A DNA stretch of 64,000 bases from Escherichia phage UoN_LG358_1, in the sequence record OK570374; one strand, given 5' to 3'. The translations under genes and the position numbers were made by a program. A model generated the notes under the pieces. That model saw only the letters and a program-made list of their open reading frames with translations. It had not been told where the DNA came from and made no database searches. Shown piece by piece: positions 3,044 through 62,464 of the stretch (positions within the stretch are counted from its first letter, which is position 1; every line of letters starts with the position of its first letter).

Positions 3044-3083
3044 TATGAAGTAATAGTAACACAGTTTAAAGCAGATGTAAACG
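3044..3083 (-). promoter_or_regulatory. T4-type early promoter
   Basis: gtaaac at 3077-3082 (GTTTAC on minus) with TGTTACTAT extended -10; upstream of motA. Confidence 0.5.
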
Positions 3084-3084
3084 G

Positions 3085-3348
3085 TTAGTTGTAAAATTTT
3101 ACGATAACTGCATTACCGTCTTTGAAGAGACCGTATTCAACACCATCAATTGTGATGATTTTACAAGGATACAAACAGTTGTTAATGAAAACTTTAGATT
3201 TGCCACGAACTGCTTTAATTTCAGTCCCGACACGGTTTGCATCAACTGTTTCTTTAAAGTTATTGTAGTAAAAACCATCTTCTTTAATTACAGAAACAGT
3301 CATTACACCACCGAAAGAACGATTGAAAGCGATAAGTTTAGTAGCCAT
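3085..3348 (-). CDS. Hypothetical protein
   Basis: ORF between motA and gene 52; ATG at 3348 with GGAG 9 nt upstream (track start is TTG). Confidence 0.5.
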   Translation of the reverse strand: MATKLIAFNRSFGGVMTVSVIKEDGFYYNNFKETVDANRVGTEIKAVRGKSKVFINNCLYPCKIITIDGVEYGLFKDGNAVIVKFYN

Positions 3349-6344: not shown

Positions 6345-6385
6345 TGATGAGATAATAGTAACACATCCTTCCATGGATGTAAACG
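6345..6385 (-). promoter_or_regulatory. T4-type early promoter (cassette family A)
   Basis: gtaaac at 6379-6384, TGTTACTAT -10; 55-bp block identical to 31869-31932. Confidence 0.55.
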
Positions 6386-6393
6386 GCTGATAG

Positions 6394-7216: not shown

Positions 7217-7240
7217 AAGAAAAAGGGACCGAAGTCCCTT
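7217..7240 (-). terminator. Rho-independent terminator after rIIB
   Basis: AGGGAC-CGAA-GTCCCT hairpin followed on the minus strand by a T-run. Confidence 0.6.
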
Positions 7241-7266: not shown

Positions 7267-8175
7267 TTAGAACGTGCACCATTTGCTAGTTACATCTTCA
7301 ATTACTTGGTATTTACATGTACGCATTTTAGCATCGCCGTAATCAACCGGGATAGATACTACATCTCGCGGATGAACTTTAACTGAAACGATACGGTCAC
7401 TAGAACCACGGAAATAGCTAATATAACTCTTAGAGCAAACATGCAATCCAGCTGAACATGTACGTTCGTCATCTTCATCAACCTGGTTACGAGCCATTTC
7501 TACAGTAACCCCAGGGGAGTTATCAAAAGTGCGGCTATGGCAATCTTTGTAGTTTTCAGTAACAACTTTCCAAGCGATAAAATGGCCGTCATCAGTGATT
7601 TCAATATCGTTCGCAACCAAGAAATCAAACAGACGAGCTACAGCTTTGCGACTTGGGTTTTCCATCAAATTTTCAAGGAAAGGCATATAGAATTCGAAGT
7701 TCTCGCCCTGTTCCATGGATTTCAGGATACGCTCTGTGAGACCTGATTTAATTTCGATGTCTTTATAGAACAGACGGCCTTCGTCAATTTTAACATTACC
7801 TTTAACGTAAGAGGTCAAACCTTTTTCAGCGTTAACGATTTCCAATGCGCCTTCAATATCACCATCAATCAGGCGCTGCAGAGCAATTTTAAAACCGGGT
7901 AGTTTATCATCTGCCGGATAAGTTTTGTGAGTGCTCAAATCGGTAATTGAGATAAATTTATTAGAAGCGTTCCAGATATATTCTGGCGCAGCAACCGGAG
8001 TTTCAACTGCTTCAATTTCTTCTACTTTAGTTTCTTGAGCCATTTCTTTAACTACGCGGCGGATAGTATCTACTGAACAGTTGAAGTGCTTAGCAATCCA
8101 GTCTCGTTTGTAGCCTGAATCAACATAATCAACGATAGACAATTTCTGAGAACGAGTAAACATTTGTACGGCCAT
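7267..8175 (-). CDS. rIIB: rIIB protein
   Basis: 302 aa; matches recalled T4 rIIB (VDTIRRV, IWNAS.KFISIT, GENFEFY.PFLENL.ENPS.KAV.RLFDFLVANDIEIT, SAGLHVCSKSYI, HPRDVVSIP.DY.DAKMRTC.Y). Confidence 0.88.
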   Translation of the reverse strand: MAVQMFTRSQKLSIVDYVDSGYKRDWIAKHFNCSVDTIRRVVKEMAQETKVEEIEAVETPVAAPEYIWNASNKFISITDLSTHKTYPADDKLPGFKIALQRLIDGDIEGALEIVNAEKGLTSYVKGNVKIDEGRLFYKDIEIKSGLTERILKSMEQGENFEFYMPFLENLMENPSRKAVARLFDFLVANDIEITDDGHFIAWKVVTENYKDCHSRTFDNSPGVTVEMARNQVDEDDERTCSAGLHVCSKSYISYFRGSSDRIVSVKVHPRDVVSIPVDYGDAKMRTCKYQVIEDVTSKWCTF

Positions 8176-8184
8176 AATTACCTC

Positions 8185-10377
8185 TTAGATGGCGCCCTGG
8201 AGCGCCGCAATTTTCATGATGTCAGTGTAGTATTCTTCTCGAGAAATGTAGTATTCTTCAAGCATATACCAAATCACTGGGTATTTTTTAGCAAATTCGT
8301 CAGAAGCTTTATTAAAATCAGACTTTGACGATAAGATGAGTTTATTATAAATCTTATAACATAAAGCAATTTTTTTAGCAGCTTTTGACTGTTTCACTAC
8401 TGTGTTAATAGAGCGGCAATTTAATGCTTCAGCCATCTGGTTGAGAACTAAAGACTTTTCCCAGTTATCACCGGAGATAAAATTCTTCAGCAACGGATTA
8501 AGTGCCTTTATATTAATCATAGCATTGAAGCGTCTGATATTAAACAAATGCGGATGAATTAAATCATCAAGTACGTCGTCAATCAAATCTGCATAACTAT
8601 CAGCTAAAATATTAAAAACTGAAGTTAGAGAATTATTGTCTTTGACATATTTCATTGCGCTAGGACGAATAGTATAAAATTCTTTTATATCTGCCGCTTT
8701 ACATGCTTGTCTAATATTTTCAATGCTGTAACTCGTAGAGCATTCTGTTCTTAATTCAACAATGTCTTCTCGATTAATTCCAACTGCTAAACCTTCCAAT
8801 TCACGAACTTCATTTGCAGTTAAAAACAAATTAGTCGATTCCCAATGAAGTTCTGAATCCAATTTCCATAGATGAACATTCGGAGATTTTGGACGTTTAA
8901 CCGCATCTGAATTATCTGGCTTATTGATTTCAGCATCTTTGGCACGGGCTTGTTCCATATCAGAAGCTTTAAAAATAACTACTTCATCGCCTTCAAACAA
9001 CTTCTTGGCAAGTTCTACAACTTCTAAATGGTCTTCATTATTCGGGTCAATTAAAATAACTTGACAGCCTTTATGAATATTAAGGTAACTCATCCCACGA
9101 ATAGTGCTTGCTCTGCGGTTTGGCTTATCGTCAATCATAAAAACAATCTTTTTCTGATTAACATGAATTAAGCCAGATGCCGAATATCGATTACGCGTGC
9201 TCCATGAATTACTAATTTTGCGGCGTTCAGCCATATCGCCGACAAAGTAAGTATACATATTAGATGAATACATTTTATTTTCGAGAGCACGTTGGTCGAA
9301 ATAATCAAGCCATTCGCGGCAAGTTTTGCCTTGAATTTTTGATTGGCTATTACCAATAATAGCAAGAGACCTGCTGGAAAATTTCTTTAACTCACGGACC
9401 AGTTCTCGCTTATTGGTTATACTTTCAAGATGTTTGATATCGTCTCTTAGATTTGTTTCTTCGATTTTATTAATTTTATTGCGAATAGCTTCGATAGTTT
9501 CTTCATTGTAAGAAAGCTCTTCACGGCTAGGAGTAATATCAAGTTCACCTAATTCAAAATTAACATAAACTGTGTTATACTTATTATTCAACCATTCGCA
9601 TTTGATACCAGGAACTTCTTGAACCTTAATCGGATAAACAATTCGTCCATAAATCGCATATAAATTCGAATCAGTATCAAAATAAGAGCGTTGTTTATCA
9701 AACCACTGCTTTTCTGGAGTAAACTCTTCGAAATAATCAATATTGATATTAGCACCTTGAATTTCTGGTTCAACACCAGCAAATGTGCGCAAAGTACGAC
9801 GGACTTCATGATGCCACTTATCAATATCGTCAGTTTTTACCGGGACAGTAATTTCAATACCGGTGTATTCATCTTCTTCCATTGCTGTGTCAAACAGCGG
9901 AATAATTTCTGGGCCAGTATTTTTCATTATAGCGGTGTAACCGCGCTTACGGCCCTTATGACAAGAAACGACTGTAAAAGTTTTTGTATAGCTAAATGGA
10001 GATTTTGAGCCAAGACCCATTGCCCCGATGAAATCATTTGAGTCGGCTTTAGTTGAAGCAAAATAAGTATTATACAAGCCTGGAGCATCATCAGTTCCAC
10101 GAATTTGTTCATCGCTCATACCTGGGCCAAAATCGCGAATTACGAAGCGCGGGTCTATACGAGTAGGAACTTTAATAGTGAACGGACGAGTTTGACCATT
10201 CAGTTTATGAGCATCGAGACAGTTAGTAGATAATTCACGAACGATAGCGTAAATTTTATTGGTGTACAACTTGTCTGAAAGAACCATGAACGCTTTCATG
10301 TTGTTCTCAATGCCAAACTTACTTGCCTTTTGATTGGCTGAACCAAAAATCTGCTCTTCTTCTTGTTTAATAATCAT
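8185..10377 (-). CDS. rIIA: rIIA protein (GHKL-type ATPase fold)
   Basis: 730 aa, immediately upstream of rIIB; T4 rIIA size and position. Confidence 0.88.
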   Translation of the reverse strand: MIIKQEEEQIFGSANQKASKFGIENNMKAFMVLSDKLYTNKIYAIVRELSTNCLDAHKLNGQTRPFTIKVPTRIDPRFVIRDFGPGMSDEQIRGTDDAPGLYNTYFASTKADSNDFIGAMGLGSKSPFSYTKTFTVVSCHKGRKRGYTAIMKNTGPEIIPLFDTAMEEDEYTGIEITVPVKTDDIDKWHHEVRRTLRTFAGVEPEIQGANINIDYFEEFTPEKQWFDKQRSYFDTDSNLYAIYGRIVYPIKVQEVPGIKCEWLNNKYNTVYVNFELGELDITPSREELSYNEETIEAIRNKINKIEETNLRDDIKHLESITNKRELVRELKKFSSRSLAIIGNSQSKIQGKTCREWLDYFDQRALENKMYSSNMYTYFVGDMAERRKISNSWSTRNRYSASGLIHVNQKKIVFMIDDKPNRRASTIRGMSYLNIHKGCQVILIDPNNEDHLEVVELAKKLFEGDEVVIFKASDMEQARAKDAEINKPDNSDAVKRPKSPNVHLWKLDSELHWESTNLFLTANEVRELEGLAVGINREDIVELRTECSTSYSIENIRQACKAADIKEFYTIRPSAMKYVKDNNSLTSVFNILADSYADLIDDVLDDLIHPHLFNIRRFNAMINIKALNPLLKNFISGDNWEKSLVLNQMAEALNCRSINTVVKQSKAAKKIALCYKIYNKLILSSKSDFNKASDEFAKKYPVIWYMLEEYYISREEYYTDIMKIAALQGAI

Positions 10378-10399
10378 CTTTTTCTCTCATTCACTTAAA

Positions 10400-10603
10400 T
10401 TAATCTTGGTTACGCTTAATCAATTCTGCAACTTCTAGAAGTTCTTCTGCCGTTGCGGTGTTGTTTTGTATTTTAAACCGTATTTCCTTAAAGCGTTCTT
10501 TAAAATCTTCAGCTTCACTCATGTCAAAAAATCTTTGAATGATGCGGTACTCTTTATATACAGCGTCATCAAATAATACCATACAAACGTTAAAGCTTTT
10601 CAT
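10400..10603 (-). CDS. Hypothetical small protein (rIIA.1 position)
   Basis: 67-aa ORF directly upstream of rIIA. Confidence 0.5.
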   Translation of the reverse strand: MKSFNVCMVLFDDAVYKEYRIIQRFFDMSEAEDFKERFKEIRFKIQNNTATAEELLEVAELIKRNQD

Positions 10604-10889
10604 TTCCTACCTCTCTGAGGATGGCTGCAAACTGGCTCATAGTGTGTTTTTCACGTACAGAGTAAACCAGCCTCAAAGCGGTTTGTTGTAGGTTCACCGG
10701 AATGATCTGGTTGTTTTCAACTAATACAGCAATATGTTCTATCATATTAGAGAATTTATTTAACCAGATTTCATCTGGTGTATTCTCTGTTTTATTCAGA
10801 AACATATCTTTACTATCTCTAATTGTTGCTGCTACGTTGTATAAATTAACATAACTTCCGTTAAGCATTTTCATAGCTGTAATCACCAT
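10590..10889 (-). CDS. Hypothetical protein
   Basis: 99-aa ORF; start uncertain. Confidence 0.45.
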   Translation of the reverse strand: MVITAMKMLNGSYVNLYNVAATIRDSKDMFLNKTENTPDEIWLNKFSNMIEHIAVLVENNQIIPVNLQQTALRLVYSVREKHTMSQFAAILREVGNEKL

Positions 10890-10892
10890 ACT

Positions 10893-10917
10893 AAAAAGGG
10901 ACTCCCGAAGGAGTCCC
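10893..10917 (-). terminator. Rho-independent terminator
   Basis: GGGACTCC-CGAA-GGAGTCCC perfect hairpin with T-run on the minus strand; a near-identical hairpin recurs at 21066-21092. Confidence 0.65.
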
Positions 10918-10922
10918 TGTTA

Positions 10923-11078
10923 TTACCATGTGGCTTTTGACACCATACCTGTAACTTTCTTCAAAGAGTTGTCCGGCTGACGAACACGAATAGTAGCTAT
11001 ATCGCCAGGGAGAGGAAGAGCATCTCCCCACATATAACCGAAACTTCCATCTACAAGCGTTACCCAGATTTGTGACAT
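10923..11078 (-). CDS. Hypothetical 51-aa protein (not in ORF track)
   Basis: ATG with GGAGAG SD; preceded by ACGGGC..GCCCGT hairpin; ends just before the terminator. Confidence 0.35.
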   Translation of the reverse strand: MSQIWVTLVDGSFGYMWGDALPLPGDIATIRVRQPDNSLKKVTGMVSKATW

Positions 11079-11112
11079 ATACTCTCCTATACGGGCGGAA
11101 TGCCCGTATTAT

Positions 11113-11640
11113 TTATTCACTCATCCAGACCTTGCGAGGAGCCGCATCATTACCCATAACCATTTCAAAAAGTTCTTTCCAATTTGGCGGCAATGACACT
11201 ACGTCATAAACCGGTTGCTGAATAACTCGTTCATATTCATCTTCTTCCAAAGAACCAAGTCCTTTGATGTAACGAAGTTTCCATCCAGCAAGTTTATCTT
11301 TTTCAGCTTCATATTCGGCGGCATTGTAATACCATTTTTGTTCAGAGCCCTTTGACATAATAATCACTGGGGTTTTAACAAACCGAATACGTCCTTCTTC
11401 GAACAATTTCGGCCAATTAGCAAAGAACGCTAGCAGGCTTGGATAAATTGACCCTGTGCCAAATATCTCTATTGTGAGGTATATCAATGATTAGCCCGAA
11501 GGCTAACCATCAACATCAGCATCAGTCATGATGGCAATGTTTTTATAATTCAAAGAAGAAGTTGATGTACGACGTACAATTGTCTGGGCTTTATATGATT
11601 TCATATCAATTTCAGTTTCTTTAACTTTAGCAAATTTCAT
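11113..11640 (-). CDS. 60: DNA topoisomerase II small subunit gp60 with an internal translational-bypass gap: codons 1-45 at 11506-11640, resumption at 11113-11457
   Basis: N-segment MKFAKVKETEIDMKSYKAQTIVRRTSTSSLNYKNIAIMTDADVDG ends in GGT followed by TAG; C-segment (T)GSIYPSLLAFFANWPKLFEEGRIRFVKTPVII... matches recalled T4 gp60 after the hop; combined 159 aa versus 160 in T4. Confidence 0.85.
11458..11505 (-). other. Untranslated coding gap of gene 60 (48 nt including the landing codon GGC)
   Basis: Take-off GGT (11506-11508) then UAG; hairpin UUAGCC-UUCG-GGCUAA (11491-11506); in-frame UAA; GAG 6 nt 5' of landing GGC (11458-11460). Confidence 0.6.
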
Positions 11641-12340
11641 TTAAAACCTCATAAAATTTTTCATCAGGAGTCCAACCGTTTTTAAACTGATTGAACGCGA
11701 TTTTGAACAGTTTCGTTTTGATAGTTATATTATTAACCGTTTTCCATTTAGCAATTCCGGTTTTCTTATAACTAACTGGGTCATAAACGTTAGCATACCA
11801 ATCATAAAGGGACGGAATCAACTTAACTGCGTCTGGATTGGTTTTAGATTTGTTATACCAAGGTTTAGATTTTTCAAGGGCGGCTGCTACTTTTGTAGCG
11901 TTTAACGTGTTACCAACTCCGCATAAACCAAGGTCCTTTATTAAAGGGTCGTCCGTTCTTAGTCTATAGGTTGTGTTATCTTTATCCTTGTAAACTCCGT
12001 ATCCTTTCACACCTTCAAATTTTCTTCCGTAATTTACGCCAACCCAATCTTCTTCAGTGTATTCGCCTTTCGTCAGTAATCGACATTCTCCAGTTTCTTT
12101 ATTTCTAAGTAAAATTTTGTCACGCATGAACTCAGCAGACCAATCTGAAATCATATTAACATAATTTTTCCTGGCTATTTCATAAAGTTTAGAACGAAAT
12201 ATTGTTCCAGAATTCATTATCCGGTTCAAAGCATAAGACATTTCTTTGTTTTTATGAATTTTAAACAATAACCAGTGCGCAATAAAATGTTCGCGATATG
12301 TCAATTTTACCAAATTATCTGAAGTATCTAATCCACCCAT
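11627..12340 (-). CDS. mobA: MobA-like HNH homing endonuclease between genes 39 and 60 (reading frame open upstream to the gene 39 stop codon)
   Basis: 237 aa from first ATG, beginning inside the HNH motif (GGLDTSDNLVKLTYREHFIAH); in-frame upstream codons encode ...EIHHILPRS with no stop back to the gene 39 UGA. Confidence 0.7.
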   Translation of the reverse strand: MGGLDTSDNLVKLTYREHFIAHWLLFKIHKNKEMSYALNRIMNSGTIFRSKLYEIARKNYVNMISDWSAEFMRDKILLRNKETGECRLLTKGEYTEEDWVGVNYGRKFEGVKGYGVYKDKDNTTYRLRTDDPLIKDLGLCGVGNTLNATKVAAALEKSKPWYNKSKTNPDAVKLIPSLYDWYANVYDPVSYKKTGIAKWKTVNNITIKTKLFKIAFNQFKNGWTPDEKFYEVLNEIC

Positions 12341-12421
12341 GCTTCTTGGAAGTATATGATGAATTTCTCCTTTAACCGGCGGAACCCTGGTTTTACCCCG
12401 GGAAATTAGTTTTTCTATAAT

Positions 12422-13975
12422 TCATACTAAGTCTTTTACTTTTTTCCAGACGCCATCAATAAAAATTTCGTCATTGATATTAACTACAATATCTTCACCG
12501 GCAACATTTACAGTATACCATTGTTCGCCGGCTTCAACTTCCGTGAATGGGTCTTCACCAATGACTAACCCAGTAATTGCACAAATATCAAAGATTTCTT
12601 TGTTTTTCAAAGCATCACCTGCAGACATTCCCCAGGTGTTCATCACTTTACCACGTAATGGATAACCGCCATGAAGGGCACGGTCACGAGTATTAATTAG
12701 ATAACCAATAGCAGAATCACCTTCTGTTAAAAACAAAGTTGTTTCTACTTTATCATTACCATATTCGCCAGCTTTGATGTGTTTATGAACTTTAGCTTTG
12801 GCCGCCTTTTTCGCTGCTTTGGTTTCTGCTGCTTTCTCTGCCGCTAGTTTACGTGCTAATGCAGCTTCAATAATCGGCATTAAAATAGCATCAGATTTCA
12901 TAATCTGATTAGAAATTTTCTTTGCATCGAGATTTAAGTGAGATTTAATTTCGCCCCATGGACTTGTAAGACGCTCTTTGGTTTGCGAGTCAAAGCGCAA
13001 GTTACTCATATCTCGAATAAACATCAACACAGTAAAACACTCTTTAATACGAGCTTTGTTTACTTCAATTTTGTGTTTACGTTTAATAGCCGGAATTAAT
13101 TCATTAGCAATTTCGTCAATAACATAATCAATATGCGAACCGCCATTCTTTGTATGAATGTTGTTAACATAAGTCATTTGACGAAAACCATCTGGAGAAT
13201 TACCTATAGCCAAAGAATAATTTTCTTCATCAATAATGATAGCATTTTTATCATACTGCTTAGAATATTTTTTGAAATTACTATCAACTTTTTTATTGTT
13301 AAATTTAAATTCAATTTTTGGATAAACGACTGCCAATGTCTGTAAACGGTCCAACATAATATCAAAATAAACATCATCAAAATTGTTCATTTCGAAATGG
13401 CTAAAATCTGGAATAAATTCTACCTTAGTTCCTTTATAAGAGGATTTTTTGGATTTCCAAGAAACATTGTCAGAATTATTGCTACAAGAAACTGTTAATT
13501 CATTTTCTCCATCAGATGTTGTACCTTTAAACATAACAGAGAAAATATTAGTCAATGAAGAACCAACACCGTTTTGCCCGCCAGTTTTACGCTCTTCATC
13601 AGCTCCAAAGTTTCCGCCTGCCTTAGTTTTCGTCCATGCTGCTACTGGACCAGGAATTTCTTCACCTTCAGGAGTAGTAACCATAGCCTGTGGAATTCCA
13701 CGGCCATTATCTTCTACGGTCACTTTGCTTGTGGAAGAATCGATATTGACTGAAATTTTATTAGCAAATTTAAAACTTGTACGGATAGCTTCATCAACAG
13801 AGTTATCGATAATTTCATCAATAAGTTTGAGAACGCCAGCTACGTATTGTACCCGCTTAAATTCGCCAAAAACAAAACGCTCATGAAATTCGTTAGATAC
13901 ACTTCCGATGTACATTCCAGGACGCTTAAGAACGTGTTCCTTGTCAGAGAGCATTTGAATTTTATTTTCAATCAT
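12422..13975 (-). CDS. 39: DNA topoisomerase II large subunit gp39 (GyrB-like ATPase)
   Basis: 517 aa; matches recalled T4 gp39 (GMYIGS, LIDEIIDNSVDE, VEDNGRGIPQAMV.TP.GEEIPGPVAAWT, GGNFG, GVGSSLTNIFSVMF, TEGDSAIGYLI). Confidence 0.92.
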   Translation of the reverse strand: MIENKIQMLSDKEHVLKRPGMYIGSVSNEFHERFVFGEFKRVQYVAGVLKLIDEIIDNSVDEAIRTSFKFANKISVNIDSSTSKVTVEDNGRGIPQAMVTTPEGEEIPGPVAAWTKTKAGGNFGADEERKTGGQNGVGSSLTNIFSVMFKGTTSDGENELTVSCSNNSDNVSWKSKKSSYKGTKVEFIPDFSHFEMNNFDDVYFDIMLDRLQTLAVVYPKIEFKFNNKKVDSNFKKYSKQYDKNAIIIDEENYSLAIGNSPDGFRQMTYVNNIHTKNGGSHIDYVIDEIANELIPAIKRKHKIEVNKARIKECFTVLMFIRDMSNLRFDSQTKERLTSPWGEIKSHLNLDAKKISNQIMKSDAILMPIIEAALARKLAAEKAAETKAAKKAAKAKVHKHIKAGEYGNDKVETTLFLTEGDSAIGYLINTRDRALHGGYPLRGKVMNTWGMSAGDALKNKEIFDICAITGLVIGEDPFTEVEAGEQWYTVNVAGEDIVVNINDEIFIDGVWKKVKDLV

Positions 13976-14581: not shown

Positions 14582-15018
14582 TATAGTAATCCTTTTAACA
14601 TTTCAATAGCCGCTTTGACTTGATTTTTATTAGTAATTGCTAAAGTGATATGAGGAATTTCATTTTCTTCTGAAGCTTCATATTCGTCATCGTTTGCTGC
14701 TAAATTAGGTGTTTCAAACTTAAAATATTTAGCTTCTTCACGCAGGATAAGGAAATATTCATCGCTGACTTTAGCATTCAAGTATCCAGGCAATCCATTG
14801 ACTGTATCTTGGTCACCAACCAGTACGCCATTACACATTATAGCTGCTTCGGCATTACCGGTCTCGGGATTGACATAAATTACTCTAAAAAATCCGCCGT
14901 TTTTCTCAATAAAGTCAATAATTTCCTCATTGTACTTATGAGCTTTAGCAAATCCAACGTAATCGCGGATTGAATACCATTTATCTTCTACAAATTCTTC
15001 TAAATTCTGTGTAGTCAT
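14581..15018 (-). CDS. Hypothetical protein
   Basis: 145 aa from ATG at 15018 (TAATG overlap; AGGA SD); the track start is TTG. Confidence 0.5.
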   Translation of the reverse strand: MTTQNLEEFVEDKWYSIRDYVGFAKAHKYNEEIIDFIEKNGGFFRVIYVNPETGNAEAAIMCNGVLVGDQDTVNGLPGYLNAKVSDEYFLILREEAKYFKFETPNLAANDDEYEASEENEIPHITLAITNKNQVKAAIEMLKGLL

Positions 15019-21018: not shown

Positions 21019-21065
21019 AATATTATCCTCATTTGATAAAAGAATTATATCATATCGTTTAAAAG

Positions 21066-21092
21066 CAAAAAAGGGACTCCCGAAGGAGCCCC
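21066..21092 (-). terminator. Rho-independent terminator after soc
   Basis: GGGACTCC-CGAA-GGAGCCCC hairpin plus T-run (minus strand). Confidence 0.6.
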
Positions 21093-21097
21093 TGCAA

Positions 21098-21343
21098 TCA
21101 ACCACCTGGTACTACTGGCGGTACGCCTTTAAACATATCAGCGTTTTTGGCAATCCAAGCGTCTCTTTGAGCTTCTTCAAAAACGGTAGAATACGCCGCT
21201 TTTTCGGAAGGGAAGAGTTGATAATGAGAACCAGCAATTTGATGCACGTCGGAGTAAAGCTTAAAAGCTACAGAAACTTCCATACCTTTTACTTCACCGT
21301 CGGCATTTGTATGGTCAAACGTTTTTACGTTAACATAACTCAT
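21098..21343 (-). CDS. soc: Small outer capsid protein Soc
   Basis: 81 aa; matches recalled T4 Soc (YVN.KTF, SVAF.LYSDVH.I.G.HYQ.FPSEKAAYSTV.EE.QR). Confidence 0.85.
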   Translation of the reverse strand: MSYVNVKTFDHTNADGEVKGMEVSVAFKLYSDVHQIAGSHYQLFPSEKAAYSTVFEEAQRDAWIAKNADMFKGVPPVVPGG

Positions 21344-24995: not shown

Positions 24996-25035
24996 TGATA
25001 AAGTAATAGTATCACATCCTTCCATGGATGTAAAC
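24996..25035 (-). promoter_or_regulatory. T4-type early promoter (cassette family A, partial)
   Basis: gtaaac at 25029-25034; shares catccttccatggatgtaaacgg with 6361-6384 and 31906-31930. Confidence 0.55.
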
Positions 25036-25037
25036 GG

Positions 25038-25262
25038 TCAACTCAAACTTTTCATTGCTTCTTCAAACGTTAATTTTTTAACTGAAAGATACCGCGCCGA
25101 GCTAATTTTCTTACCATTGCTAAGGACGACCAGTGTCCCGTAGTCCCATCCTGATAAATCTATTGAGTTCCATATATCAACACATACTTGTAGTGACTCA
25201 TCCGCTACTATGAACTTCTCGTGACCATCTCGGTCACGATTGGCAATTAAAACATAAATCAA
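25038..25262 (-). CDS. Hypothetical small protein immediately downstream of gene 41
   Basis: 74-aa ORF; occupies the T4 dmd/61.4 position but I could not confirm similarity. Confidence 0.4.
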   Translation of the reverse strand: MIYVLIANRDRDGHEKFIVADESLQVCVDIWNSIDLSGWDYGTLVVLSNGKKISSARYLSVKKLTFEEAMKSLS

Positions 25263-31889: not shown

Positions 31890-31931
31890 TTGATGAGATA
31901 ATAGTAACACATCCTTCCATGGATGTAAACG
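31890..31931 (-). promoter_or_regulatory. T4-type early promoter (cassette family A)
   Basis: gtaaac at 31925-31930, TGTTACTAT -10; block identical to 6335-6390. Confidence 0.55.
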
Positions 31932-31932
31932 G

Positions 31933-34626
31933 TTAGAAGTCAAACATATCTTCTAACGATGCTTTCTCTTCGTAGTCCATACCAGCAGCCTCACACATGC
32001 CAGTCAAAGGTTTGACAAAAGACTTCTGAAAGAGTGTGGTGTAATCCATCCAAGCCAATACTTCTGAACGAATTTCCTGTGGCAACTCAGTACCGGATGG
32101 CCAAGCAATGCACTTATCACCAAACGGGTTTCCTTCGCGCAAAGGAACAATCATTACTTTGTTCCCCTCAAGAATTGGAGTAGCGCTGAACCCAGCAGTC
32201 GCTCGGTTGTAAGTCAAAGCACCTCGAATGTGGAACGGACACTTAAATCCAGGCCATCCGTTATCATCATACTTGGCGATGTCATTACATGTCTTAACTT
32301 CTGCAATGATTTTGTAATCAAGACCACGGTATTCTTTTTCAAACTGTTTGTAATATTCTTGTACTGATTTTTCACCTTCTTGAAGCATACGACGAATACT
32401 TTCTTCCAATGCTGCCTGCACCGCCTTTGGAGTAGAAGATTGCTGAGTTTCCATACCCATGATTTTTAGATGCGGCTCAGTGTAACGAGTATCTTCCATG
32501 TCATATACGTTCAATGCATAACGTTTCTTAGCTTTCCAGAAACCGCCAATACCCTTTGAACCAAGAGGAGGACAAGAAATAGCCTCACGGTCCATATGCA
32601 TTAGGTGTTCTTTATTATTCATGTACTCACAAAGCTCACGGTAAGCTTTGTCAATCATAGGTTCCATTTTTTTCTTACCAAATTGGTTCATGAATTCAAC
32701 CAAATCATTGGTATTTTTAAAACGCTCTAAACCTACTTTTTCAATTACTTTATCGACAGAAACGTAAACTGAGTCAGTGTCTCCTGCCGCTATAAAATCT
32801 TCATTGGTTGTACCGCATACTCGGTTCAGATACTCGTTAATCTTACGAGCAATCCACTGGATACCAACCTGACCGAACAGAGTGATAGCAGTCGCATTAC
32901 GGAGGTCAAAATATCGGAAATAAATGTTACCGAGAGCACCATAAAGACTGTTGATGAGAATTTTACGGTTCAACTGGTTTGTATTAGCCAAAATACTCGC
33001 AAGTTCACAATCATGTTTCATCGCTTTCAGAGCTGATACACTTAACCCGTAGAGTTCATTCTTCACTTCATCACTAAAATCTTTATAACGCTCAACCTGA
33101 ATTTTACCGCCAGTACCGCCGGACTTTGAAGCCATAACAGCATTAATAACTTCGATGTTACGTTTTTCGGCTTGCTGCTTTTTCTTCCAATCTTTACGTT
33201 GGAAAAATACCTTCGCAATCTCAACCGGGATAATACCCTCACGGTCTTTGTGATACATCCAACCATTTGGTGAACATGAATATGTATCACTAGGACGCGG
33301 TGCTGTTCCATTGATGTATTCATGAATTGGATGAAGCTTAAACTGACCAGCGATAGTTTCTGGACTGATATTCACTTGACGAATGATACTTGGATAAAGA
33401 GACGTCAAGTCAAAACTCATAATATAATTACGAGCACATGCTTTTGGTTCAAATACATAAGCACCTGGGAAGCTCTGCTTAACATGCGAACGTCCTTGCG
33501 GAACCACTCGCTTATCTTCTTTGAGACTATTGAAAATAATAGCATCCCAGGTTTTAATCGGACTCATTACACCGCCAAAAGGCATTTTAGCGTAATAAGA
33601 CATACTAATTGCTAGGTCGATGAACCCACGAACTTGGTCGATACCTTGCACCGATTCAACGTCCATGATGTTATAACTGATATAACGTTGGTGGTTCGTT
33701 TCACGCAATTTGTTAATCGGACCGTCATAAGGCAGTTTACCTTTTTTGGTCTCATATTTTGCAACATAATCCAAAGTATAAGACGGTTGGTTAGTGAAAC
33801 TGTACTTTTTGTACAAATCCATGTAATCAAGAATAGTTACGCCGTCAATGCTAAATACTTCTTTATCACCGTACATGTTAGTGATAATTTTAGATTTCAC
33901 GCGATTGATTGGTGAAAAACGCTTCATCGAACGTTCACCTAGAACTTGCTTAACGCGGTTCATGATATACGGAATATCAAAACCTTCAATGTTCCAACCG
34001 GTGAAAATTACTGGACGCTTTTGTTCCCAAAGACGAATATATTCCATCAACAGTTCGGCTTCAGTTTCAAACGGTAGATAAACAACCCGGTCAAGAATAT
34101 CTTGTGGAACTTCGTCGCCGCGCTCTGCTTCACACCGAGCTGCTAACTTTTTATCCCATTTGGATACTGACCCATACAACGAATGGAGTAAATCAAAGAC
34201 ATAAAATTTGTCATCAATGGAATCGTAATGAGTGATAGCATCAATTTCATATTCTGCTTTCATCGGGTCTGGGAATTTATCGCCAGTAACTTCGATGTCA
34301 CAGTTCGCTACACGAATGAATTTTCGGTCATAAACAATTTCGGAACCATATGTGTCACTGATATATGCGAGTTTAAAATCATCCATTCCCATTGCTTCAA
34401 GACCGACATCTTCCATGCGCTTGAACCAATCACGGGCATCCTTCATTGTAGGAAAATTAATTGGTTCGCAGTCCTTTCCATAGATGTCTTTGAATTTTGA
34501 TGGTTTATCAACATGACGGAACAGAGTCGGAGAATATTCGACGCGACGAGTTTTTTCTACGCCATCTTCAATATATCGTTCAACAATATCATTACCAACA
34601 GTTTCTACAGATACATAAAATTTCAT
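31933..34626 (-). CDS. 43: DNA polymerase gp43 (family B)
   Basis: 897 aa; near-colinear with recalled T4 gp43 (exo motif, YGDTDS-region equivalents, C-terminal KASLE.LF); no intein or intron interruption. Confidence 0.95.
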   Translation of the reverse strand: MKFYVSVETVGNDIVERYIEDGVEKTRRVEYSPTLFRHVDKPSKFKDIYGKDCEPINFPTMKDARDWFKRMEDVGLEAMGMDDFKLAYISDTYGSEIVYDRKFIRVANCDIEVTGDKFPDPMKAEYEIDAITHYDSIDDKFYVFDLLHSLYGSVSKWDKKLAARCEAERGDEVPQDILDRVVYLPFETEAELLMEYIRLWEQKRPVIFTGWNIEGFDIPYIMNRVKQVLGERSMKRFSPINRVKSKIITNMYGDKEVFSIDGVTILDYMDLYKKYSFTNQPSYTLDYVAKYETKKGKLPYDGPINKLRETNHQRYISYNIMDVESVQGIDQVRGFIDLAISMSYYAKMPFGGVMSPIKTWDAIIFNSLKEDKRVVPQGRSHVKQSFPGAYVFEPKACARNYIMSFDLTSLYPSIIRQVNISPETIAGQFKLHPIHEYINGTAPRPSDTYSCSPNGWMYHKDREGIIPVEIAKVFFQRKDWKKKQQAEKRNIEVINAVMASKSGGTGGKIQVERYKDFSDEVKNELYGLSVSALKAMKHDCELASILANTNQLNRKILINSLYGALGNIYFRYFDLRNATAITLFGQVGIQWIARKINEYLNRVCGTTNEDFIAAGDTDSVYVSVDKVIEKVGLERFKNTNDLVEFMNQFGKKKMEPMIDKAYRELCEYMNNKEHLMHMDREAISCPPLGSKGIGGFWKAKKRYALNVYDMEDTRYTEPHLKIMGMETQQSSTPKAVQAALEESIRRMLQEGEKSVQEYYKQFEKEYRGLDYKIIAEVKTCNDIAKYDDNGWPGFKCPFHIRGALTYNRATAGFSATPILEGNKVMIVPLREGNPFGDKCIAWPSGTELPQEIRSEVLAWMDYTTLFQKSFVKPLTGMCEAAGMDYEEKASLEDMFDF

Positions 34627-35665: not shown

Positions 35666-36621
35666 TCATTATTAAGTTCAGCTGTTAAACGCAAGAACAT
35701 ATACATCACATGAAGTTCAGTATTTGAGGCAACTCCTTTGTACTGGTTGTTTTCACCAATAATTTCGTACATTGCCATTATACCAGGTCCTTTAAGCATA
35801 GAGTATAATTCTTCGGCGAGTTTACCTACAAACCAAGAGTAATCAGTAGAATATTTTGGAGCCAAAGCCCTAAGCTGTTTAACATCTCGATTTTTTAGAG
35901 CATCAATCACATCTGAAATTGAACTAGAGTCTTTAGTTACAATACTCAGAATTCCAGCATCCAGAACGCCTTTGGACGAATACATATCAAGTTCGCCAAT
36001 AGTCTTACGAAAATCTGGAAAGTTCTTTTTAACTAAAGCAGCAACAACTTTTAAATCGGCGATTTCAATGTTTTCATTTTTACATATTTCAACCATACGA
36101 CGAATCATCTGTTTCATCATTGTTGTACGGTCTTCTTCTGTTGCTTGGCCAAATTTAATTACTCGGCAACGCGAACGAAGTGGTTCAATAATGCCGTCAA
36201 TATTGTTGGCAGTAATAATAACAGAACAGTTACTTGAATATGCTTCTAAAAATGAACGCAAATGACGCTGAGATTCAGCAAGTCCAGAACGGTCAAATTC
36301 GTCAATAACAATAACTTTTTGACGACCTTCAATAGAAGCAGAACTTGCAAAATTAGTTAATGGCCCACGGACAAAATCAATTTTACAATCTGAACCATTC
36401 ACAAACATCATATCAGCATTTGTGTCATTACACAAAGCTTTTGCTGTAGTTGTTTTACCTGTACCTGGTGAAGCAGATACCAGAATCATATGAGGGATTT
36501 TACCGCTTTTAACAATTTTATTCATTGTTTCGCGGTCGGCGGCGGGAAGGATACATTCTTCAATTGTAGAAGGACGATACCGTTGTTCAAGGATGTGTTC
36601 TTTTTCGTTAATTGTAATCAT
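35656..36621 (-). CDS. 44: Clamp-loader ATPase gp44 (RFC-like)
   Basis: 321 aa; Walker A SPGTGKTT, Walker [12 protein letters not shown] motif. Confidence 0.9.
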
Positions 36622-36689
36622 AATTTCCTCATATTAATATTCAAAGCAATGGGGCCGTAACCCCATTTTAAATCATTTTATTTACAGCA

Positions 36690-37376
36690 TTAAAAATCAT
36701 GAGTAGAATCAGCTTCCATAGCTACTACATAACTTGCATGTTCACCTTCAAACTTAGCTGCTGTTTTCTTACCATCAGCCCACAGCATCAGTTTGTATGA
36801 AGCGGGTTGCATTTTCATATTAGCCATGTTAATAACAAAGTTAAAGTTATTGGTGCCGTCATAATCGCCCAAAGTCAAAGAATATTTCACACGAACCAAA
36901 GCAGAATCTTCAACTTTATTATAACCGTTCAGAATAATTTTACCATCTTTATTGGTGAATGTGATGGTATCAATCTGCAAACCACGAGAAACTCGCATCA
37001 GCTGCTGAAGGTCTTCACCTTTAAAATCTACAATAACTGAAGCGACCGGGAACGGAATTGGCTTGCTTGGAAAAACAATGGTGCTTGGGTCAGCTGCTGG
37101 CCAGAAAATAGTTGAACGAGCATCTGCGATTTTCACATTACCATAATCTGCCATGGAAATCTCTGCGTCTTCATTAACCAAACCAAGAATACCCAGAAAA
37201 CCATTCAAATCATAAATTGCTACTTCAAAATCAATTGTGTCAGCGATAGTTGCTTCAGCATAAGTTGTGCCGTTTACAGCACGTGTCATGATAAAGTTAC
37301 CCTGCTTAAGCATGATACCAGAGTTAATAGTAGAGAAATTTTTCAGAATATTCAGAGTATCTTTAGACAGTTTCAT
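36690..37376 (-). CDS. 45: Sliding clamp gp45
   Basis: 228 aa from MKLSKDT; near-colinear with recalled T4 gp45. Confidence 0.9.
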   Translation of the reverse strand: MKLSKDTLNILKNFSTINSGIMLKQGNFIMTRAVNGTTYAEATIADTIDFEVAIYDLNGFLGILGLVNEDAEISMADYGNVKIADARSTIFWPAADPSTIVFPSKPIPFPVASVIVDFKGEDLQQLMRVSRGLQIDTITFTNKDGKIILNGYNKVEDSALVRVKYSLTLGDYDGTNNFNFVINMANMKMQPASYKLMLWADGKKTAAKFEGEHASYVVAMEADSTHDF

Positions 37377-38018: not shown

Positions 38019-39700
38019 TTTTCCATTACCGTGAATCTGCCAACTTTCTTCATCTGAAGATGTTGCCCATAATCCTGCGGGTCATGGTCTTTATGGCTTA
38101 TGATAAAGATATTACTATCAGTCATTCCATTGAGAATTGTTCCTACTCGCTTAATACCTTCATTATCAAACGCGCCATCATAAACTTCATCAAGAAAGAG
38201 ACAGTTAATTTTAACATTAGAAACTTTTTCAGCAATGTCTCGCCACGTGAACAGCAACGCAATATCAATACGAGCTTTTTCGCCTTGGCTGAATGACGCA
38301 TAACTGAATTCTTCGCGCCCGCGAGATTTAATAGTTTCGGTGAATTCTTCGTTCAAAGTAAAGACATAATCAGCTTCCATAATTTTAAGATACTGATTAA
38401 TCTGTTTGTTGAACATCGGAATATATTTGCTAATAATAGCTCCCTTGATACCCGAATCTTTCAGCATTTCAGTTAAAATGCCTCGATGATATTTTTCCAT
38501 AACCATATTGGATTTGGTATCAACTATTTTATTCAATTCTTCGTTAAGCGTTTTAATCTCATCGGCATGATTGATGAATTCTTTTGATGCTTTTTCAATC
38601 GCCGCTTTTACTTTTTTAGCCTTTTCTACTGTTGAAATTAAAGTTTGCTTTTTAGATTTTATGTCTTGAGCAAGTTCACGTTGCGTTCTAACGTTGCTCT
38701 CATATTCATGCACTAGTGTCTCTAGATTGGCTCTATGACTTTCTAACGACTCTGATTTATGTTTACATTCATTAATCTTATCGTTAATCTGAGTGACTAG
38801 AGATGACCCAGAGTCTAATTGTTGCATGCATGTTGGGCATGAACCTCCAGAATGATACAAAGAAACAACCTTGTTATATGAGTCAATTTTAGACTTAATC
38901 AACAGAGTTTGATTACCAATTTCAGTAAACGCGGACCGAGGGTCTTCATCAAGCACGATAGATGTTAAACGCTCAGTTGCTTTTTCAATTTCGGATTTGA
39001 TAGAACGTGCTTCAGTCGCAAGTTCATCATACATGGTCTGAAAACGAGCTATATTTTCTCCTGATAGCTTTTTCTGGCGTTCAACGTTCTCTTCATAAAT
39101 TTTAATCTGTTGGATAATTCCGTCTTTCTTTGCGTCCAACACAGAGACTTGTGAATTAATTTCTCTTATATGAGATTTATTCAATTTATCCATTTCAGCT
39201 AATGTAGAAACTTCGAGCAAGTCTTCTACTAACTTCCGCCGAGCTGGAGTACTCAAACCCATGAACGGTGTATAACCAGCTGTACCAAGCACAACTACTT
39301 GCTTAAAGCTGGAATAAGACATTTTGATAAGTTCTTCAAAATAGCTTTGAAAATCTTTAACAGAAGCTGCCTCGTCCAGGCGAACTCCGTCTCGAGTTAT
39401 TTCAAAGATATTCGGCTTTTGACCGCGCTTTATATAAAAATGCTTACCGTCATACTCCATCCAAAGCTCTACTAACATATCTTTTTTATTAATAGAGTTT
39501 ACTAGTTGTCCTTTCTTAATATCACGGAACGGTTTGCCAAATAAAGCAAATGTAATAGCTTCCAGCATGGTACTCTTACCACCACCATTTTTGCCGGTGA
39601 TGAGAGTTTTTTGTACCTTATCAAGTTGAATATCAATTGGAACTTGTCCAACAGACATTATATTAGAATATTTTACTCTATTAAGTTTAAAGGTTTTCAT
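38015..39700 (-). CDS. 46: Recombination nuclease subunit gp46 (Rad50/SbcC-like ATPase)
   Basis: 561 aa; Walker A GKNGGGKST; near-colinear with recalled T4 gp46; C-terminus QHLQMKKVGRFTVM. Confidence 0.9.
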   Translation of the reverse strand: MKTFKLNRVKYSNIMSVGQVPIDIQLDKVQKTLITGKNGGGKSTMLEAITFALFGKPFRDIKKGQLVNSINKKDMLVELWMEYDGKHFYIKRGQKPNIFEITRDGVRLDEAASVKDFQSYFEELIKMSYSSFKQVVVLGTAGYTPFMGLSTPARRKLVEDLLEVSTLAEMDKLNKSHIREINSQVSVLDAKKDGIIQQIKIYEENVERQKKLSGENIARFQTMYDELATEARSIKSEIEKATERLTSIVLDEDPRSAFTEIGNQTLLIKSKIDSYNKVVSLYHSGGSCPTCMQQLDSGSSLVTQINDKINECKHKSESLESHRANLETLVHEYESNVRTQRELAQDIKSKKQTLISTVEKAKKVKAAIEKASKEFINHADEIKTLNEELNKIVDTKSNMVMEKYHRGILTEMLKDSGIKGAIISKYIPMFNKQINQYLKIMEADYVFTLNEEFTETIKSRGREEFSYASFSQGEKARIDIALLFTWRDIAEKVSNVKINCLFLDEVYDGAFDNEGIKRVGTILNGMTDSNIFIISHKDHDPQDYGQHLQMKKVGRFTVMEK

Positions 39701-40529
39701 TTAATATCCGTCTGTCAAATTCGGCTACTATAGCTTGTAAAGAACTTGTTATGGGATGCCCGAGTTTAATAAGTTCTTTTGAAAATGTAGAATATCTAGG
39801 TTTATTCATTTTAATCCACTCTGTATAAAGCAAATCAAAATTTTGCCATTGATACGATTTTCTTCTGGATTTTAAATGAGCCTCTCTAATTTCGTCATTC
39901 TTCCAACTTTGAGAAACTCCCAATGATAAAGATTTACGATAATCTAAATTTTTAGATGAGAGTCTAGTTGCATTTAAATGCTTAATTTTATTTTCTGGAT
40001 TTTCAAACCACTCTTTAGTTTTCTTAGATACTAAAGACTTAAATTCATTTGAATTTACTCGTTCCAGGTGAATTTTTAAATTATCGGAATTTTCAAACCA
40101 TCGTTTGACTGCTTGGCTAATTTTTATTCTGTTTTCTGCTATTGAATAATAACTGGACATTTTGATTGAAATAGCCTTTGAAATTTCAGTAGAAACTTTT
40201 GAATATATTTTAGCCATTTCTTCAAATTCTTCAAAACTACATTTATAAGCAGTTTTGCTATTATTCATTCTATTAATAGCTTGCAACATTCTATAATCTT
40301 TAGTTTCAGACAATATAGCATGTGCAATAAAATGGTTATAATGTGTTAAATGCACAATATTTGACGGGTCTTTAGCATATTCTGGAAAAATGGACTTTGG
40401 TAAAATATGATGAGCTTGAGTATGTCCTTTGTTTAACTTGGTTGAATTAGTTTTAATAAATTCTACATACTTATTAACGCCTTCCCATTGAGGGAAGGCT
40501 GCTTTTAATATAGTCTCAGCGTCAATCAT
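39687..40529 (-). CDS. Free-standing HNH homing endonuclease between genes 47 and 46
   Basis: 280 aa; HHILPKSIFPEYAKDPSNIVHLTHYNHFIAH HNH motif; basic repeat-rich C-terminal half; overlaps both neighbours. Confidence 0.8.
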   Translation of the reverse strand: MIDAETILKAAFPQWEGVNKYVEFIKTNSTKLNKGHTQAHHILPKSIFPEYAKDPSNIVHLTHYNHFIAHAILSETKDYRMLQAINRMNNSKTAYKCSFEEFEEMAKIYSKVSTEISKAISIKMSSYYSIAENRIKISQAVKRWFENSDNLKIHLERVNSNEFKSLVSKKTKEWFENPENKIKHLNATRLSSKNLDYRKSLSLGVSQSWKNDEIREAHLKSRRKSYQWQNFDLLYTEWIKMNKPRYSTFSKELIKLGHPITSSLQAIVAEFDRRILNENL

Positions 40530-45594: not shown

Positions 45595-45635
45595 GTATGA
45601 GGTAATAGTAACACAGTTTTTGGAGGATGTAAACG
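45595..45635 (-). promoter_or_regulatory. T4-type early promoter (cassette family B)
   Basis: gtaaac at 45629-45634; about 45-bp block identical to 62383-62427. Confidence 0.55.
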
Positions 45636-45644
45636 GTTGATATG

Positions 45645-45673
45645 AAAGAAAAGAGGGACCGCTAGGGTCCCTC
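45645..45673 (-). terminator. Rho-independent terminator after nrdH
   Basis: GAGGGACC-GCTA-GGGTCCCTC hairpin plus T-run (minus strand). Confidence 0.6.
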
Positions 45674-45725: not shown

Positions 45726-46037
45726 TCACTCTTCGTCCAGGTTATAACCTAAGACGCTAAGTTGTTCTAATAGGTGGGATTTGTTGCGTATTCTTTGGTT
45801 GTTCAAAAAGACGATAGGATATCGTAGAGCTAAACTCGGATAACTACCTACACGTTTAGCCGCTTCAGTAATTCGGTCTCTGTCGTAGACAAATCCAACT
45901 TCGTTTTCGTTTGGAATTATTACATCGTAAAAAGCATAAGGGATATTTTCATCATCCAAAGTTTTACGAATTGAATAGCAGGCCGGACACCGGCCTACTG
46001 TCTCAGGAATTCCGTATATTTCTATTTTTGCAGACAT
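45726..46037 (-). CDS. nrdH: Glutaredoxin-like protein (NrdH-type)
   Basis: 103 aa with CPAC redox motif; adjacent to the anaerobic RNR genes. Confidence 0.65.
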   Translation of the reverse strand: MSAKIEIYGIPETVGRCPACYSIRKTLDDENIPYAFYDVIIPNENEVGFVYDRDRITEAAKRVGSYPSLALRYPIVFLNNQRIRNKSHLLEQLSVLGYNLDEE

Positions 46038-49932: not shown

Positions 49933-50097
49933 TCAATTATATAGCCAATATGTCCTTGCCCATTTCTTACGGTTTCGGATTTGAGTTTTAGTCGGCTTAG
50001 TAGAGAACCACCAGGAAATTTTATATCCATCGTCAAAATCAAAAATTAGATGCCATTTAGACATCTGATTTGATACATACTTTAATTCAGTTTTCAT
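49933..50097 (-). CDS. Possible 54-aa protein (weak)
   Basis: Short ORF with Trp-rich C-terminus; no clear SD. Confidence 0.25.
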   Translation of the reverse strand: MKTELKYVSNQMSKWHLIFDFDDGYKISWWFSTKPTKTQIRNRKKWARTYWLYN

Positions 50098-50104
50098 TTA
50101 AATA

Positions 50105-50524
50105 CTAGCTGGAAAAAGATAGCTGTTTTTCTAGAGCTCGAATATAATCCGCTGCTGCTTGCATTATATTAGCTTCATACCCATTAACACGGATTTTCGC
50201 GGCTTCAAGATGGTCTGTTATTGGTTGTCCGTCGTCAAAAAATCCTAAAGTAACCGCTGGAAATAAATCAGAATCATATTCTTCGATTTCTTTAAGTTGA
50301 TACATACCGTCTTCACAGTAAAAACACCAGAACCAACTATCGCGAGCGTTAATATGAAGATAAGGGCCGTTTTTAATTTTGACAGAAGTGATACCGTCTT
50401 CATGGCCGTTTTCTTTGTCAACAGTAATAACTTTAAAAACAGTTCCGACTTTCATTTCAGGAAATTGTTCCAGAAGTTCTTCATCGTCTTCAATAATTTC
50501 AAAAACTTTATTCACTAAACTCAT
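50105..50524 (-). CDS. Hypothetical acidic protein
   Basis: 139 aa from ATG at 50524 (1 nt after the upstream stop); track start is TTG. Confidence 0.45.
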   Translation of the reverse strand: MSLVNKVFEIIEDDEELLEQFPEMKVGTVFKVITVDKENGHEDGITSVKIKNGPYLHINARDSWFWCFYCEDGMYQLKEIEEYDSDLFPAVTLGFFDDGQPITDHLEAAKIRVNGYEANIMQAAADYIRALEKQLSFSS

Positions 50525-58602: not shown

Positions 58603-58647
58603 TTTTTGAAAATTTTCTTCAAAAACAACAAAACCTCCCGAAGGAGG

Positions 58648-58902
58648 TTATTTGGAGTATTTTTCTAGCTGGCGCTCAGCGAACCGTTTAGGTAGCATAA
58701 ACAACCATTTTAGGATATGCCAGAGACCCGTTAAGATAAAAACAGGTAACCATAATAGTAATACAAACAGGTAAGAAGAAGTGTCCTCAATCGTCCCTCG
58801 TTTAACGAGGGCATTTGTTATAAACCAGCCGCATGTTAGATAAACTAACGTAACAATGATAGGCATAATCCACCAAAGCTGAGCTAAAAGTAAAGTAACC
58901 AT
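58648..58902 (-). CDS. Small membrane protein
   Basis: 84 aa, two or three TM segments. Confidence 0.45.
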   Translation of the reverse strand: MVTLLLAQLWWIMPIIVTLVYLTCGWFITNALVKRGTIEDTSSYLFVLLLWLPVFILTGLWHILKWLFMLPKRFAERQLEKYSK

Positions 58903-62382: not shown

Positions 62383-62422
62383 GATAAGTTAATAGTAACA
62401 CAGTTTTTGGAGGATGTAAACG
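62383..62422 (-). promoter_or_regulatory. T4-type early promoter (cassette family B)
   Basis: gtaaac at 62416-62421; block identical to 45595-45640. Confidence 0.55.
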
Positions 62423-62464
62423 GTTGATATGAAAATGCCCTGGACTGATGCCAGGGCGATAGGA

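Follow-up and report, generated by a model that had tools for sequence, protein, structure and literature searches.

Hairpins capped by a C(UUCG)G tetraloop have been described in the intercistronic regions of bacteriophage T4 (Tuerk et al. 1988, PNAS 85:1364, in the accounts given by PMC8948821 and PMC7165471). Going by those accounts the hairpin type has been known in T4 since 1988, and the elements analyzed here are already annotated in sister genomes. A second kind of intergenic element, the promoter-early stem-loop (PeSL), recombines and forms mini-circles in RB49/phi1 and takes part in the modular shuffling of T4-type phages (PMC2839356, PMC4122927). The RB49 PeSL stem-loop terminated in a lacZ assay (PMC2839356), and its hairpin differs from those reported below. 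The MotA box of T4-type middle promoters follows the consensus wwwTGCTTtA and stands 12±1 bp from the -10 element (PMC2988021), and the endoribonuclease RegB is inhibited by secondary structure (PMC1702504).

The window, that is, the whole 64,000-nucleotide stretch of Escherichia phage UoN_LG358_1 (OK570374) that was analyzed, showed 99.9% identity to Salmonella phage STP4-a over positions 20000-44000 and 97.9% identity to phage S16 over 10000-12000 on sequence comparison, STP4-a being the closest complete genome. Both belong to Gelderlandvirus (Straboviridae, Tevenvirinae), a genus of T4-like phages, and the window is likewise from a T4-like Salmonella phage of this genus. Its genes span asiA/motA, rIIB, rIIA, the topoisomerase genes, soc, replication genes and nrd genes, and the genes of this region are almost all on the minus strand. 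The phage encodes both motA and asiA, and a regB-like endoribonuclease gene (STP4a_112) is also present.

On the plus strand, hairpin 1 (GGGACTCC-CGAA-GGAGTCCC, 10898-10917) recurs with one mismatch as hairpin 2 (GGGACTCC-CGAA-GGAGCCCC, 21073-21092); this recurrence had been pointed out in a sequence-only reading of the DNA, and its coordinates and sequences check out. In the minus-strand reading the 20-mer GGGACTCCTTCGGGAGTCCC is exact at 10898-10917 and has one mismatch at 21073-21092, and a search of the window allowing up to three mismatches returned exactly these two sites. The resemblance is beyond chance: 0.00 matches were expected from 100 dinucleotide-preserving shuffles, none of which gave any match, and a chance origin of the pair was thereby ruled out. 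The unit common to both hairpins is about 27-28 nt long (C-AGGG[A/G]CUCC-UUCG-GGAGUCCCU-UUUU), and the flanks further out are dissimilar. Hairpin 3 (AGGGAC-CGAA-GTCCCT, 7224-7239) and hairpin 4 (GAGGGACC-GCTAG-GGTCCCTC, 45653-45673) had been presented as related GGGAC-type hairpins. Both are indeed found at these positions, but the part shared extends only to 5-6 nt at the start and end of the stem, and the GGGAC resemblance is a general design preference and no specific repeat. Rfam covariance models at the gathering score gave no match anywhere in the window; single terminators are not expected in Rfam.

The CGAA loop reported earlier is a reading of the non-coding strand. For hairpins such as these the strand to read is that of the local genes; on it the CGAA loop turns into UUCG, and the plus-strand A-run at 10893-10897 is the U-run of hairpin 1. 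So read, hairpin 1 (putative terminator 1; 10893..10918, minus strand) consists of AGGGACUCC-UUCG-GGAGUCCCU (10918->10897) with its U-run (10897->10893) and lies 4 nt past the TAA of a conserved 51-aa ORF (phrog_4369; 10923..11078, minus strand), which it would end. Hairpin 2 (putative terminator 2, the soc terminator; 21067..21093, minus strand) reads AGGGGCUCC-UUCG-GGAGUCCCU (21093->21072) with U6, and the stem begins 4 nt past the TGA of the ORF for the small outer capsid protein, soc (21098..21343, minus strand), the gene presumed to end there; its placement after soc had been correctly noted. Hairpin 3 (7218..7240, minus strand) is terminator-like as well, with AAGGGAC-UUCG-GUCCCUU (7240->7223) and UUUUC, 26 nt past the stop of rIIB (7267..8175) and 12 nt before the next ATG. 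The terminator-like hairpin 4 (45649..45673, minus strand), GAGGGACC-CUAGC-GGUCCCUC (45673->45653) with UUUUC, lies 52 nt past the stop of a thioredoxin-like ORF (45726..46037). A further terminator-like C(UUCG)G hairpin, AACCUCC-UUCG-GGAGGUU with a U-rich tail (58632..58649, minus strand), is on the sense strand too and belongs to the same class with another stem. All those small ORFs flanking the three UUCG hairpins that were checked match conserved PHROG families.

The stems of the four hairpins are 7-9 bp long with 4-6 G-C pairs, and contexts of 41-46 nt folded at -10.9 to -21.8 kcal/mol, with z of -2.0 to -4.2 against shuffles (-21.8 kcal/mol and z -4.2 for the 46-nt context of hairpin 1). 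Each stem is followed by 4-6 U on the minus strand, the T-tail being absent from the plus strand; in hairpin 4 the loop is CUAGC instead of UUCG, and no more than four U follow. The single mismatch that separates hairpin 2 from hairpin 1 forms a G.U pair on the minus strand, where the fold reaches -17.6 kcal/mol, and an A.C mismatch on the plus strand (-12.0 kcal/mol). The minus (sense) strand has 10 CTTCGG sites, 5 of them within stems of 7-16 bp; of the 17 on the plus (antisense) strand, 0 have a stem longer than 4 bp. A strand asymmetry of the same kind has been reported for T4 (PMC7165471). The one-sided U-run, the G.U/A.C asymmetry and the CTTCGG asymmetry, which are independent of one another, show the minus-strand RNA to be what matters. 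Sense-strand C(UUCG)G motifs with flanking complementarity were found at 10910, 21085, 7234, 58643 and 11501; the hairpin at 45653-45673 is outside this set, its loop being CUAGC.

On this sequence evidence, the hairpins are very probably rho-independent (intrinsic) terminators of the minus strand in a T4-like Salmonella phage. The hallmarks of that class are present: a stable G+C-rich stem-loop, a U-tract 3' of the stem, a sense-strand intergenic position past a gene and, for the soc hairpin, pairing kept with compensatory change. The earlier description of a repeated terminator is thus borne out, on the opposite strand, by stem, U-run, post-stop placement, strand asymmetry, conservation with a compensatory change and the GenBank annotations of relatives. 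The record of phage Melville (MF957259) already lists both main hairpins as terminators on the minus strand; that of AKM_NP4 has hairpin 1 as a terminator, but on the plus strand.

The window has ten terminator-like hairpins on the minus strand, nine of which fall between genes, -2 to 52 nt past a stop codon. The tenth (46936->46911) is a strong 11-bp hairpin with a U-rich tail inside an nrdG-like CDS annotated in STP4-a (36621..37112); unless the annotation has the nrdG start wrong, this one is probably no terminator. Behind hairpins 1 and 3 the ribosome-binding site of the next gene follows within 7-25 nt (for putative terminator 1 the Shine-Dalgarno sequence and ATG are within about 20 nt) and no promoter was found between, so these two cannot be complete stops unless internal promoters exist; a full stop would leave the rIIA.1-like gene and rIIA, and the gene after rIIB, in need of internal promoters, and none was found. 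From this arrangement, putative terminators 1 and 3 are best regarded as attenuators or leaky terminators, and as 3'-stabilising hairpins, inside a longer operon, and may act mainly as attenuators or stability elements. The Melville annotation takes the GGAG in the 3' arm of hairpin 1 as the Shine-Dalgarno sequence of the next gene; this is unlikely, the spacing to the ATG at 10889 being 12 nt, and orthologs keep a GGTGA Shine-Dalgarno sequence before a second ATG at 10874.

Downstream of soc the arrangement is of another kind. A candidate MotA-dependent middle promoter (21044..21070, minus strand), consisting of a UUUUGCUUUU box, 11 nt and TATAAT (21049->21044), overlaps the U-run of putative terminator 2 and is followed by a GAGGA Shine-Dalgarno sequence and an ATG at 21018; this spacing and box fit the MotA-box consensus (PMC2988021). 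The overlap of the U-run with a MotA-box-like UUUUGCUUUU, followed by TATAAT or TAGAAT, is kept 3' of soc in several genera (soc loci L187-L196 and L204-L211), and T4-type genomes have an early promoter at this site in place of the MotA-box type. A late-promoter-like AATAAATA precedes soc itself at 21378->21371 on the minus strand. Directly downstream of hairpin 4 lies an early-promoter repeat, GTTTACA-N17-TACTAT (45599..45639, minus strand), one of 12 copies in the window. This T4-type early promoter repeat, of about 41 nt or more, reads AACCGTTTACA-N17-TA(C/T)TAT at its 12 minus-strand sites (e.g. 3047-3087, 6349-6389, 25000-25040, 31895-31935, 45599-45639 and 62386-62426); some copies are identical over 37 nt and hold an internal palindrome, CATCCATGGAAGGATG.

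Some further features of the region were noticed in passing. An intercistronic hairpin, AUACGGGC-AUU-GCCCGUAU (ATACGGGCATTCCGCCCGTAT), occurs at 11109->11089 on the minus strand between a gp60-like ORF and the 51-aa ORF. It lies right against the Shine-Dalgarno sequence AGGAGA, and no U-run follows it on the sense strand; a plus-strand scan flagged it as terminator-like, yet there is no plus-strand gene at the site. Within the topoisomerase region, a translational bypass ('hop') element of the T4 gene 60 type was observed at 11420-11560 on the minus strand, in an insertion that spans 11458-12551. It reads ...NIAIMTDADVDG, GGT TAG and then the hairpin UAGCC-UUCG-GGCUA, extendable to 16 bp at 11516->11481; translation would then skip about 45 nt and pick up again at GGC ACA GGG TCA ATT TAT CC (TGSIYPS), where T4 gene 60 has GGA UAG, a 47-nt gap and LGSIYPS. 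The element adjoins an HNH (mobA-like) endonuclease ORF (11627..12340) and interrupts the gene for the large subunit of topoisomerase; the insertion is absent from STP4-a and Melville and present in S16 and AKM_NP4, and homologous bypass cases have been described (bioRxiv 10.1101/2022.08.31.505936). Elsewhere, the 450 nt at 50032-50481 are absent from STP4-a (40169-40172) and are bounded by a short GA(C/T)GATG repeat inside coding sequence, so that two ORFs are fused in STP4-a; this difference looks like a microhomology-mediated deletion and no cassette exchange. Two more segments do not align to STP4-a, one at 39638-40525 between gp46-like and gp47-like genes (888 nt versus about 262 nt) and the other a replacement of about 120 nt at 14763-14881.

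Orthology was clearest at soc. The Soc protein of the window is 61% identical to T4 Soc, is annotated as small outer capsid protein in STP4-a, and in T4 soc is followed by AAGGACUCC-UUCG-GGAGUCCUU-UUUU (T4 15324->15303). A set of 27 soc loci was drawn from IMG/VR irrespective of the hairpin; 25 of them have the same hairpin, one has a different stem-loop and one is apparently truncated. Over 21 distinct versions of the locus, 98.9% of cells pair. The outer pair changes in a compensatory manner, being AU in 12 versions, GC in 9 and mispaired in 0; one pair has a G.U variant, and the six pairs that are invariant are for that reason uninformative on pairing. The pairing kept across these loci, at the same place after soc, marks hairpin 2 as the conserved soc terminator of T-even phages. 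Hairpin 1 was found with identical sequence in at least three genus-level groups in which the flanking coding sequence has diverged; when the downstream 94-aa protein was used as query for its orthologs, it returned five close relatives only, all already known carriers.

The core of the stem is invariant across genera though the Soc proteins are only 50% identical, and in several Tevenvirinae genera each genome retains GGACUCC-UUCG-GGAGUCC at three to four loci. This invariance exceeds what structure alone requires and is the only mildly unexplained point. There is a slim chance that the core is bound sequence-specifically by a phage or host factor acting in termination/antitermination or RNA stability, or that the palindrome is a template-switch hotspot driving occasional module exchange; if either were true, the core would be more than a generic terminator. 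Recurrent loop flips, seen in terminators of other T4-like genomes that are otherwise identical, hint at the latter. On the sense strand UUCG has become CGAA at the soc locus of contig 2974573174 and, in the same way, at another locus of contig 2706796299, and UUCU has become AGAA in contig 2974546015 as against its relatives. The stems of these terminators are intact in at least three independent events, and a loop flipped with the stem intact is a signature of palindrome-mediated inversion or template switching.

The same hairpin was found well beyond these two loci. The whole STP4-a genome holds four copies of the 20-mer family: the two seen in the window, one after a small ORF near rIII, and one on the plus strand after a baseplate gene in the late cluster. 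That last cluster is itself on the plus strand, which shows that hairpin orientation follows transcription. Copies within a genome are alike over only about 27 nt, with no flank similarity. In contig 3300045988_066482 one locus has GGGACUCC-UUCG and the soc locus AGGACUCC-UCCG; genomes such as this, whose copies differ in outer pair and loop, ruled out concerted evolution or gene conversion among the copies. On scanning IMG/VR, the real 20-mer (GGG[A/G]CUCC-UUCG-GGAGUCCC, both variants) was found at 57 loci, unrelated environmental phages among them. Control stems of the same composition gave 96 loci (GGGAGUCC-UUCG-GGACUCCC) and 12 loci (GGGUCACC-UUCG-GGUGACCC), and the version with arms swapped (GGAGUCCC-UUCG-GGGACUCC) gave 4. 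In distant bacteria the identical 20-mer occurs at 53 sites, 42 of them with a T-tail. About 22 of the 53 represent one orthologous Clostridia locus, which leaves some 30 independent occurrences by count, where, by our estimate, a given 20-mer is expected about once by chance in the bacterial collection. At that Clostridia locus (rumen and gut; among L219-L270) the sequence is ggcgaaattatg-GGGACTCCTTCGGGAGTCCC-cgatttttt, and the stem extends further (AUG...CG). A phage-specific or mobile 20-mer was ruled out by the control stems together with the T-tailed bacterial copies. T4-type phages, many unrelated phages and bacteria thus converge on the same very stable UUCG-capped stem.

These observations bear on several other accounts of the hairpins, two of which were raised in the sequence-only reading. 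One holds that they are also PeSL-like recombination cassettes, exchange between copies shuffling, deleting or circularising the intervening genes. Such recombination and mini-circles have been demonstrated in RB49/phi1 (Arbiol et al. 2010, PMC2839356; Comeau et al. 2014, PMC4122927), a repeated early promoter comes after the 45673->45653 hairpin, an arrangement shared by the 62457->62386 unit, with a near-identical promoter of about 45 nt, and the loop flips show the palindrome to be active at the DNA level. In addition, at the soc hairpin and at the hairpin of a third locus elsewhere in these genomes, the downstream content varies between genera and the upstream gene is conserved. A conserved/variable junction is, however, expected at any gene end. 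No homology to T4 mrh.2 or rIIA.1 was detectable in the genes downstream of the hairpins, a result that reveals such a junction at the soc hairpin and proves no mechanism. Moreover, a PeSL extends over about 100 nt and the repeat unit here over only about 27 nt, no promoter follows hairpin 1, the one after hairpin 2 is of the middle and not the early type, and the PeSL layout of a stem-loop with a sigma70-type early promoter, an AT-rich upstream region and about 100 bp conserved was absent from hairpins 1, 2 and 3, only hairpin 4 (45673->45599) fitting it. The boundaries speak in the same sense: the four indels between the window and STP4-a (11458-12551, 14763-14881, 39638-40525 and 50032-50481) all lie away from the hairpins, one of them being a GACGATG microhomology event, and among the 57 IMG/VR loci no chimeric combination occurs, the downstream flank classes being peculiar to their upstream class. 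An exchange that joined copies 1 and 2 would in addition remove about 10 kb with topoisomerase and helicase genes. With no STP4-a breakpoint at a hairpin, 0 chimeric flanks in 57 loci, copies that diverge independently and a unit of about 27 nt, the suggestion of a second role as recombination signal was not upheld, and we regard it as unlikely. The loop inversions (UUCG<->CGAA, UUCU<->AGAA) are recurrent and imply DNA hairpin or template-switch events, and the stems are perfect DNA palindromes, as would suit an element that acts as DNA, either as a cruciform or as a protein-binding palindrome (e.g. a replication or nuclease site); that this is its role is extremely improbable, the G.U versus A.C pairing, the sense-only UUCG, the one-sided U-run and the orientation following transcription all pointing to RNA.

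An RNA role other than termination is conceivable, in which the hairpins would be processing signals cut by RegB at GGAG or by host RNase III/RNase E. GGAG is present within the 3' arm (UUCG-GGAG-UCCC), the phage has its regB-like gene, and hairpins 1 and 3 stand directly before the ribosome-binding site of the next gene. RNase III substrates are far longer than a 7-9 bp stem, and the U-run and post-stop placement fit termination. For RegB, a site would consist of an accessible GGAG with an A-rich element downstream, and here GGAG is base-paired in the 3' arm; in T4, 16 intergenic GGAG lying in stable structures, terminators included and often with UUCG loops, are RegB-resistant (PMC1702504). 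The earlier idea that the hairpins may double as RNA-processing signals finds no support here and is at odds with these T4 data, and we consider processing in place of termination very unlikely. The copies might also have arisen by recent duplication of a small MITE- or REP-like element, mobile or gene-converting, that spreads within and between phage genomes, as four near-identical copies per genome, the identical 20-mer in unrelated phages and a stem core invariant across genera could suggest. Against this, the copies occupy orthologous and not variable positions across genera, flank similarity and target-site duplications are both absent, copies in one genome diverge independently (contig 3300045988_066482), distant bacteria have the same 20-mer with T-tails, and control stems of like composition occur as often or more often. 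Spread of a mobile element is accordingly highly improbable, and the simplest reading of the near-identity of the copies would be that one favoured design was reached time and again and then strongly retained, with no mobile module.

Intrinsic termination thus remains the reading that we prefer. We infer actual termination, its efficiency and a stabilising role from the anatomy and placement of the hairpins; our literature search found no Term-seq study of T4. As host RNA polymerase passes the upstream stop codon, the nascent RNA would fold into a 7-9 bp G+C-rich stem with a C(UUCG)G cap, and the stem with the following U-run would release some or all of the transcripts. Remaining at the 3' end of the mRNA, the same hairpin should also shield the message from 3'-exonucleases. 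The upstream genes so served would be the 51-aa ORF, soc, rIIB and the thioredoxin-like ORF. Putative terminator 2 would close a short soc transcription unit, its U-run running into the MotA-type middle promoter of the next gene. The recurrence of one stem design, with a G-rich 5' arm and a C-rich 3' arm beside the U-run, would reflect strong selection and no mobility or ongoing copying. The significance is mainly one of annotation, the hairpins marking probable ends of transcription units, the short soc unit and likely attenuators inside the rII/topoisomerase operon.

Among known systems, PeSLs share with these hairpins a terminator stem-loop in an intergenic gap that is reused many times per genome, and the 45673->45599 and 62457->62386 units have the PeSL layout of stem-loop and early promoter; hairpins 1 and 2 differ in that they lack an early promoter, flank conserved genes and not ORFans, and repeat over about 27 nt in place of about 100 nt. 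Generic bacterial rho-independent terminators are alike in G-rich 5' arm, C-rich 3' arm and U-run, the only difference being the host, here a phage using the host RNA polymerase. The soc terminator of T4 is the same as hairpin 2 in position after soc, in the core GGACUCC-UUCG-GGAGUCC and in the U-run; its outer pair is A-U where this phage has a compensatory G-C, the window has one G.U pair, and T4 continues with an early promoter whereas in this phage a MotA-box middle promoter overlaps the U-run. With the T4 C(UUCG)G hairpins, as far as the available accounts of them go, the likeness extends to the C-G-closed UUCG, the restriction to the sense strand, the intergenic position and the frequent place before a U-run, with no essential difference, hairpin 4 (loop CUAGC) fitting only the broader class of terminators.
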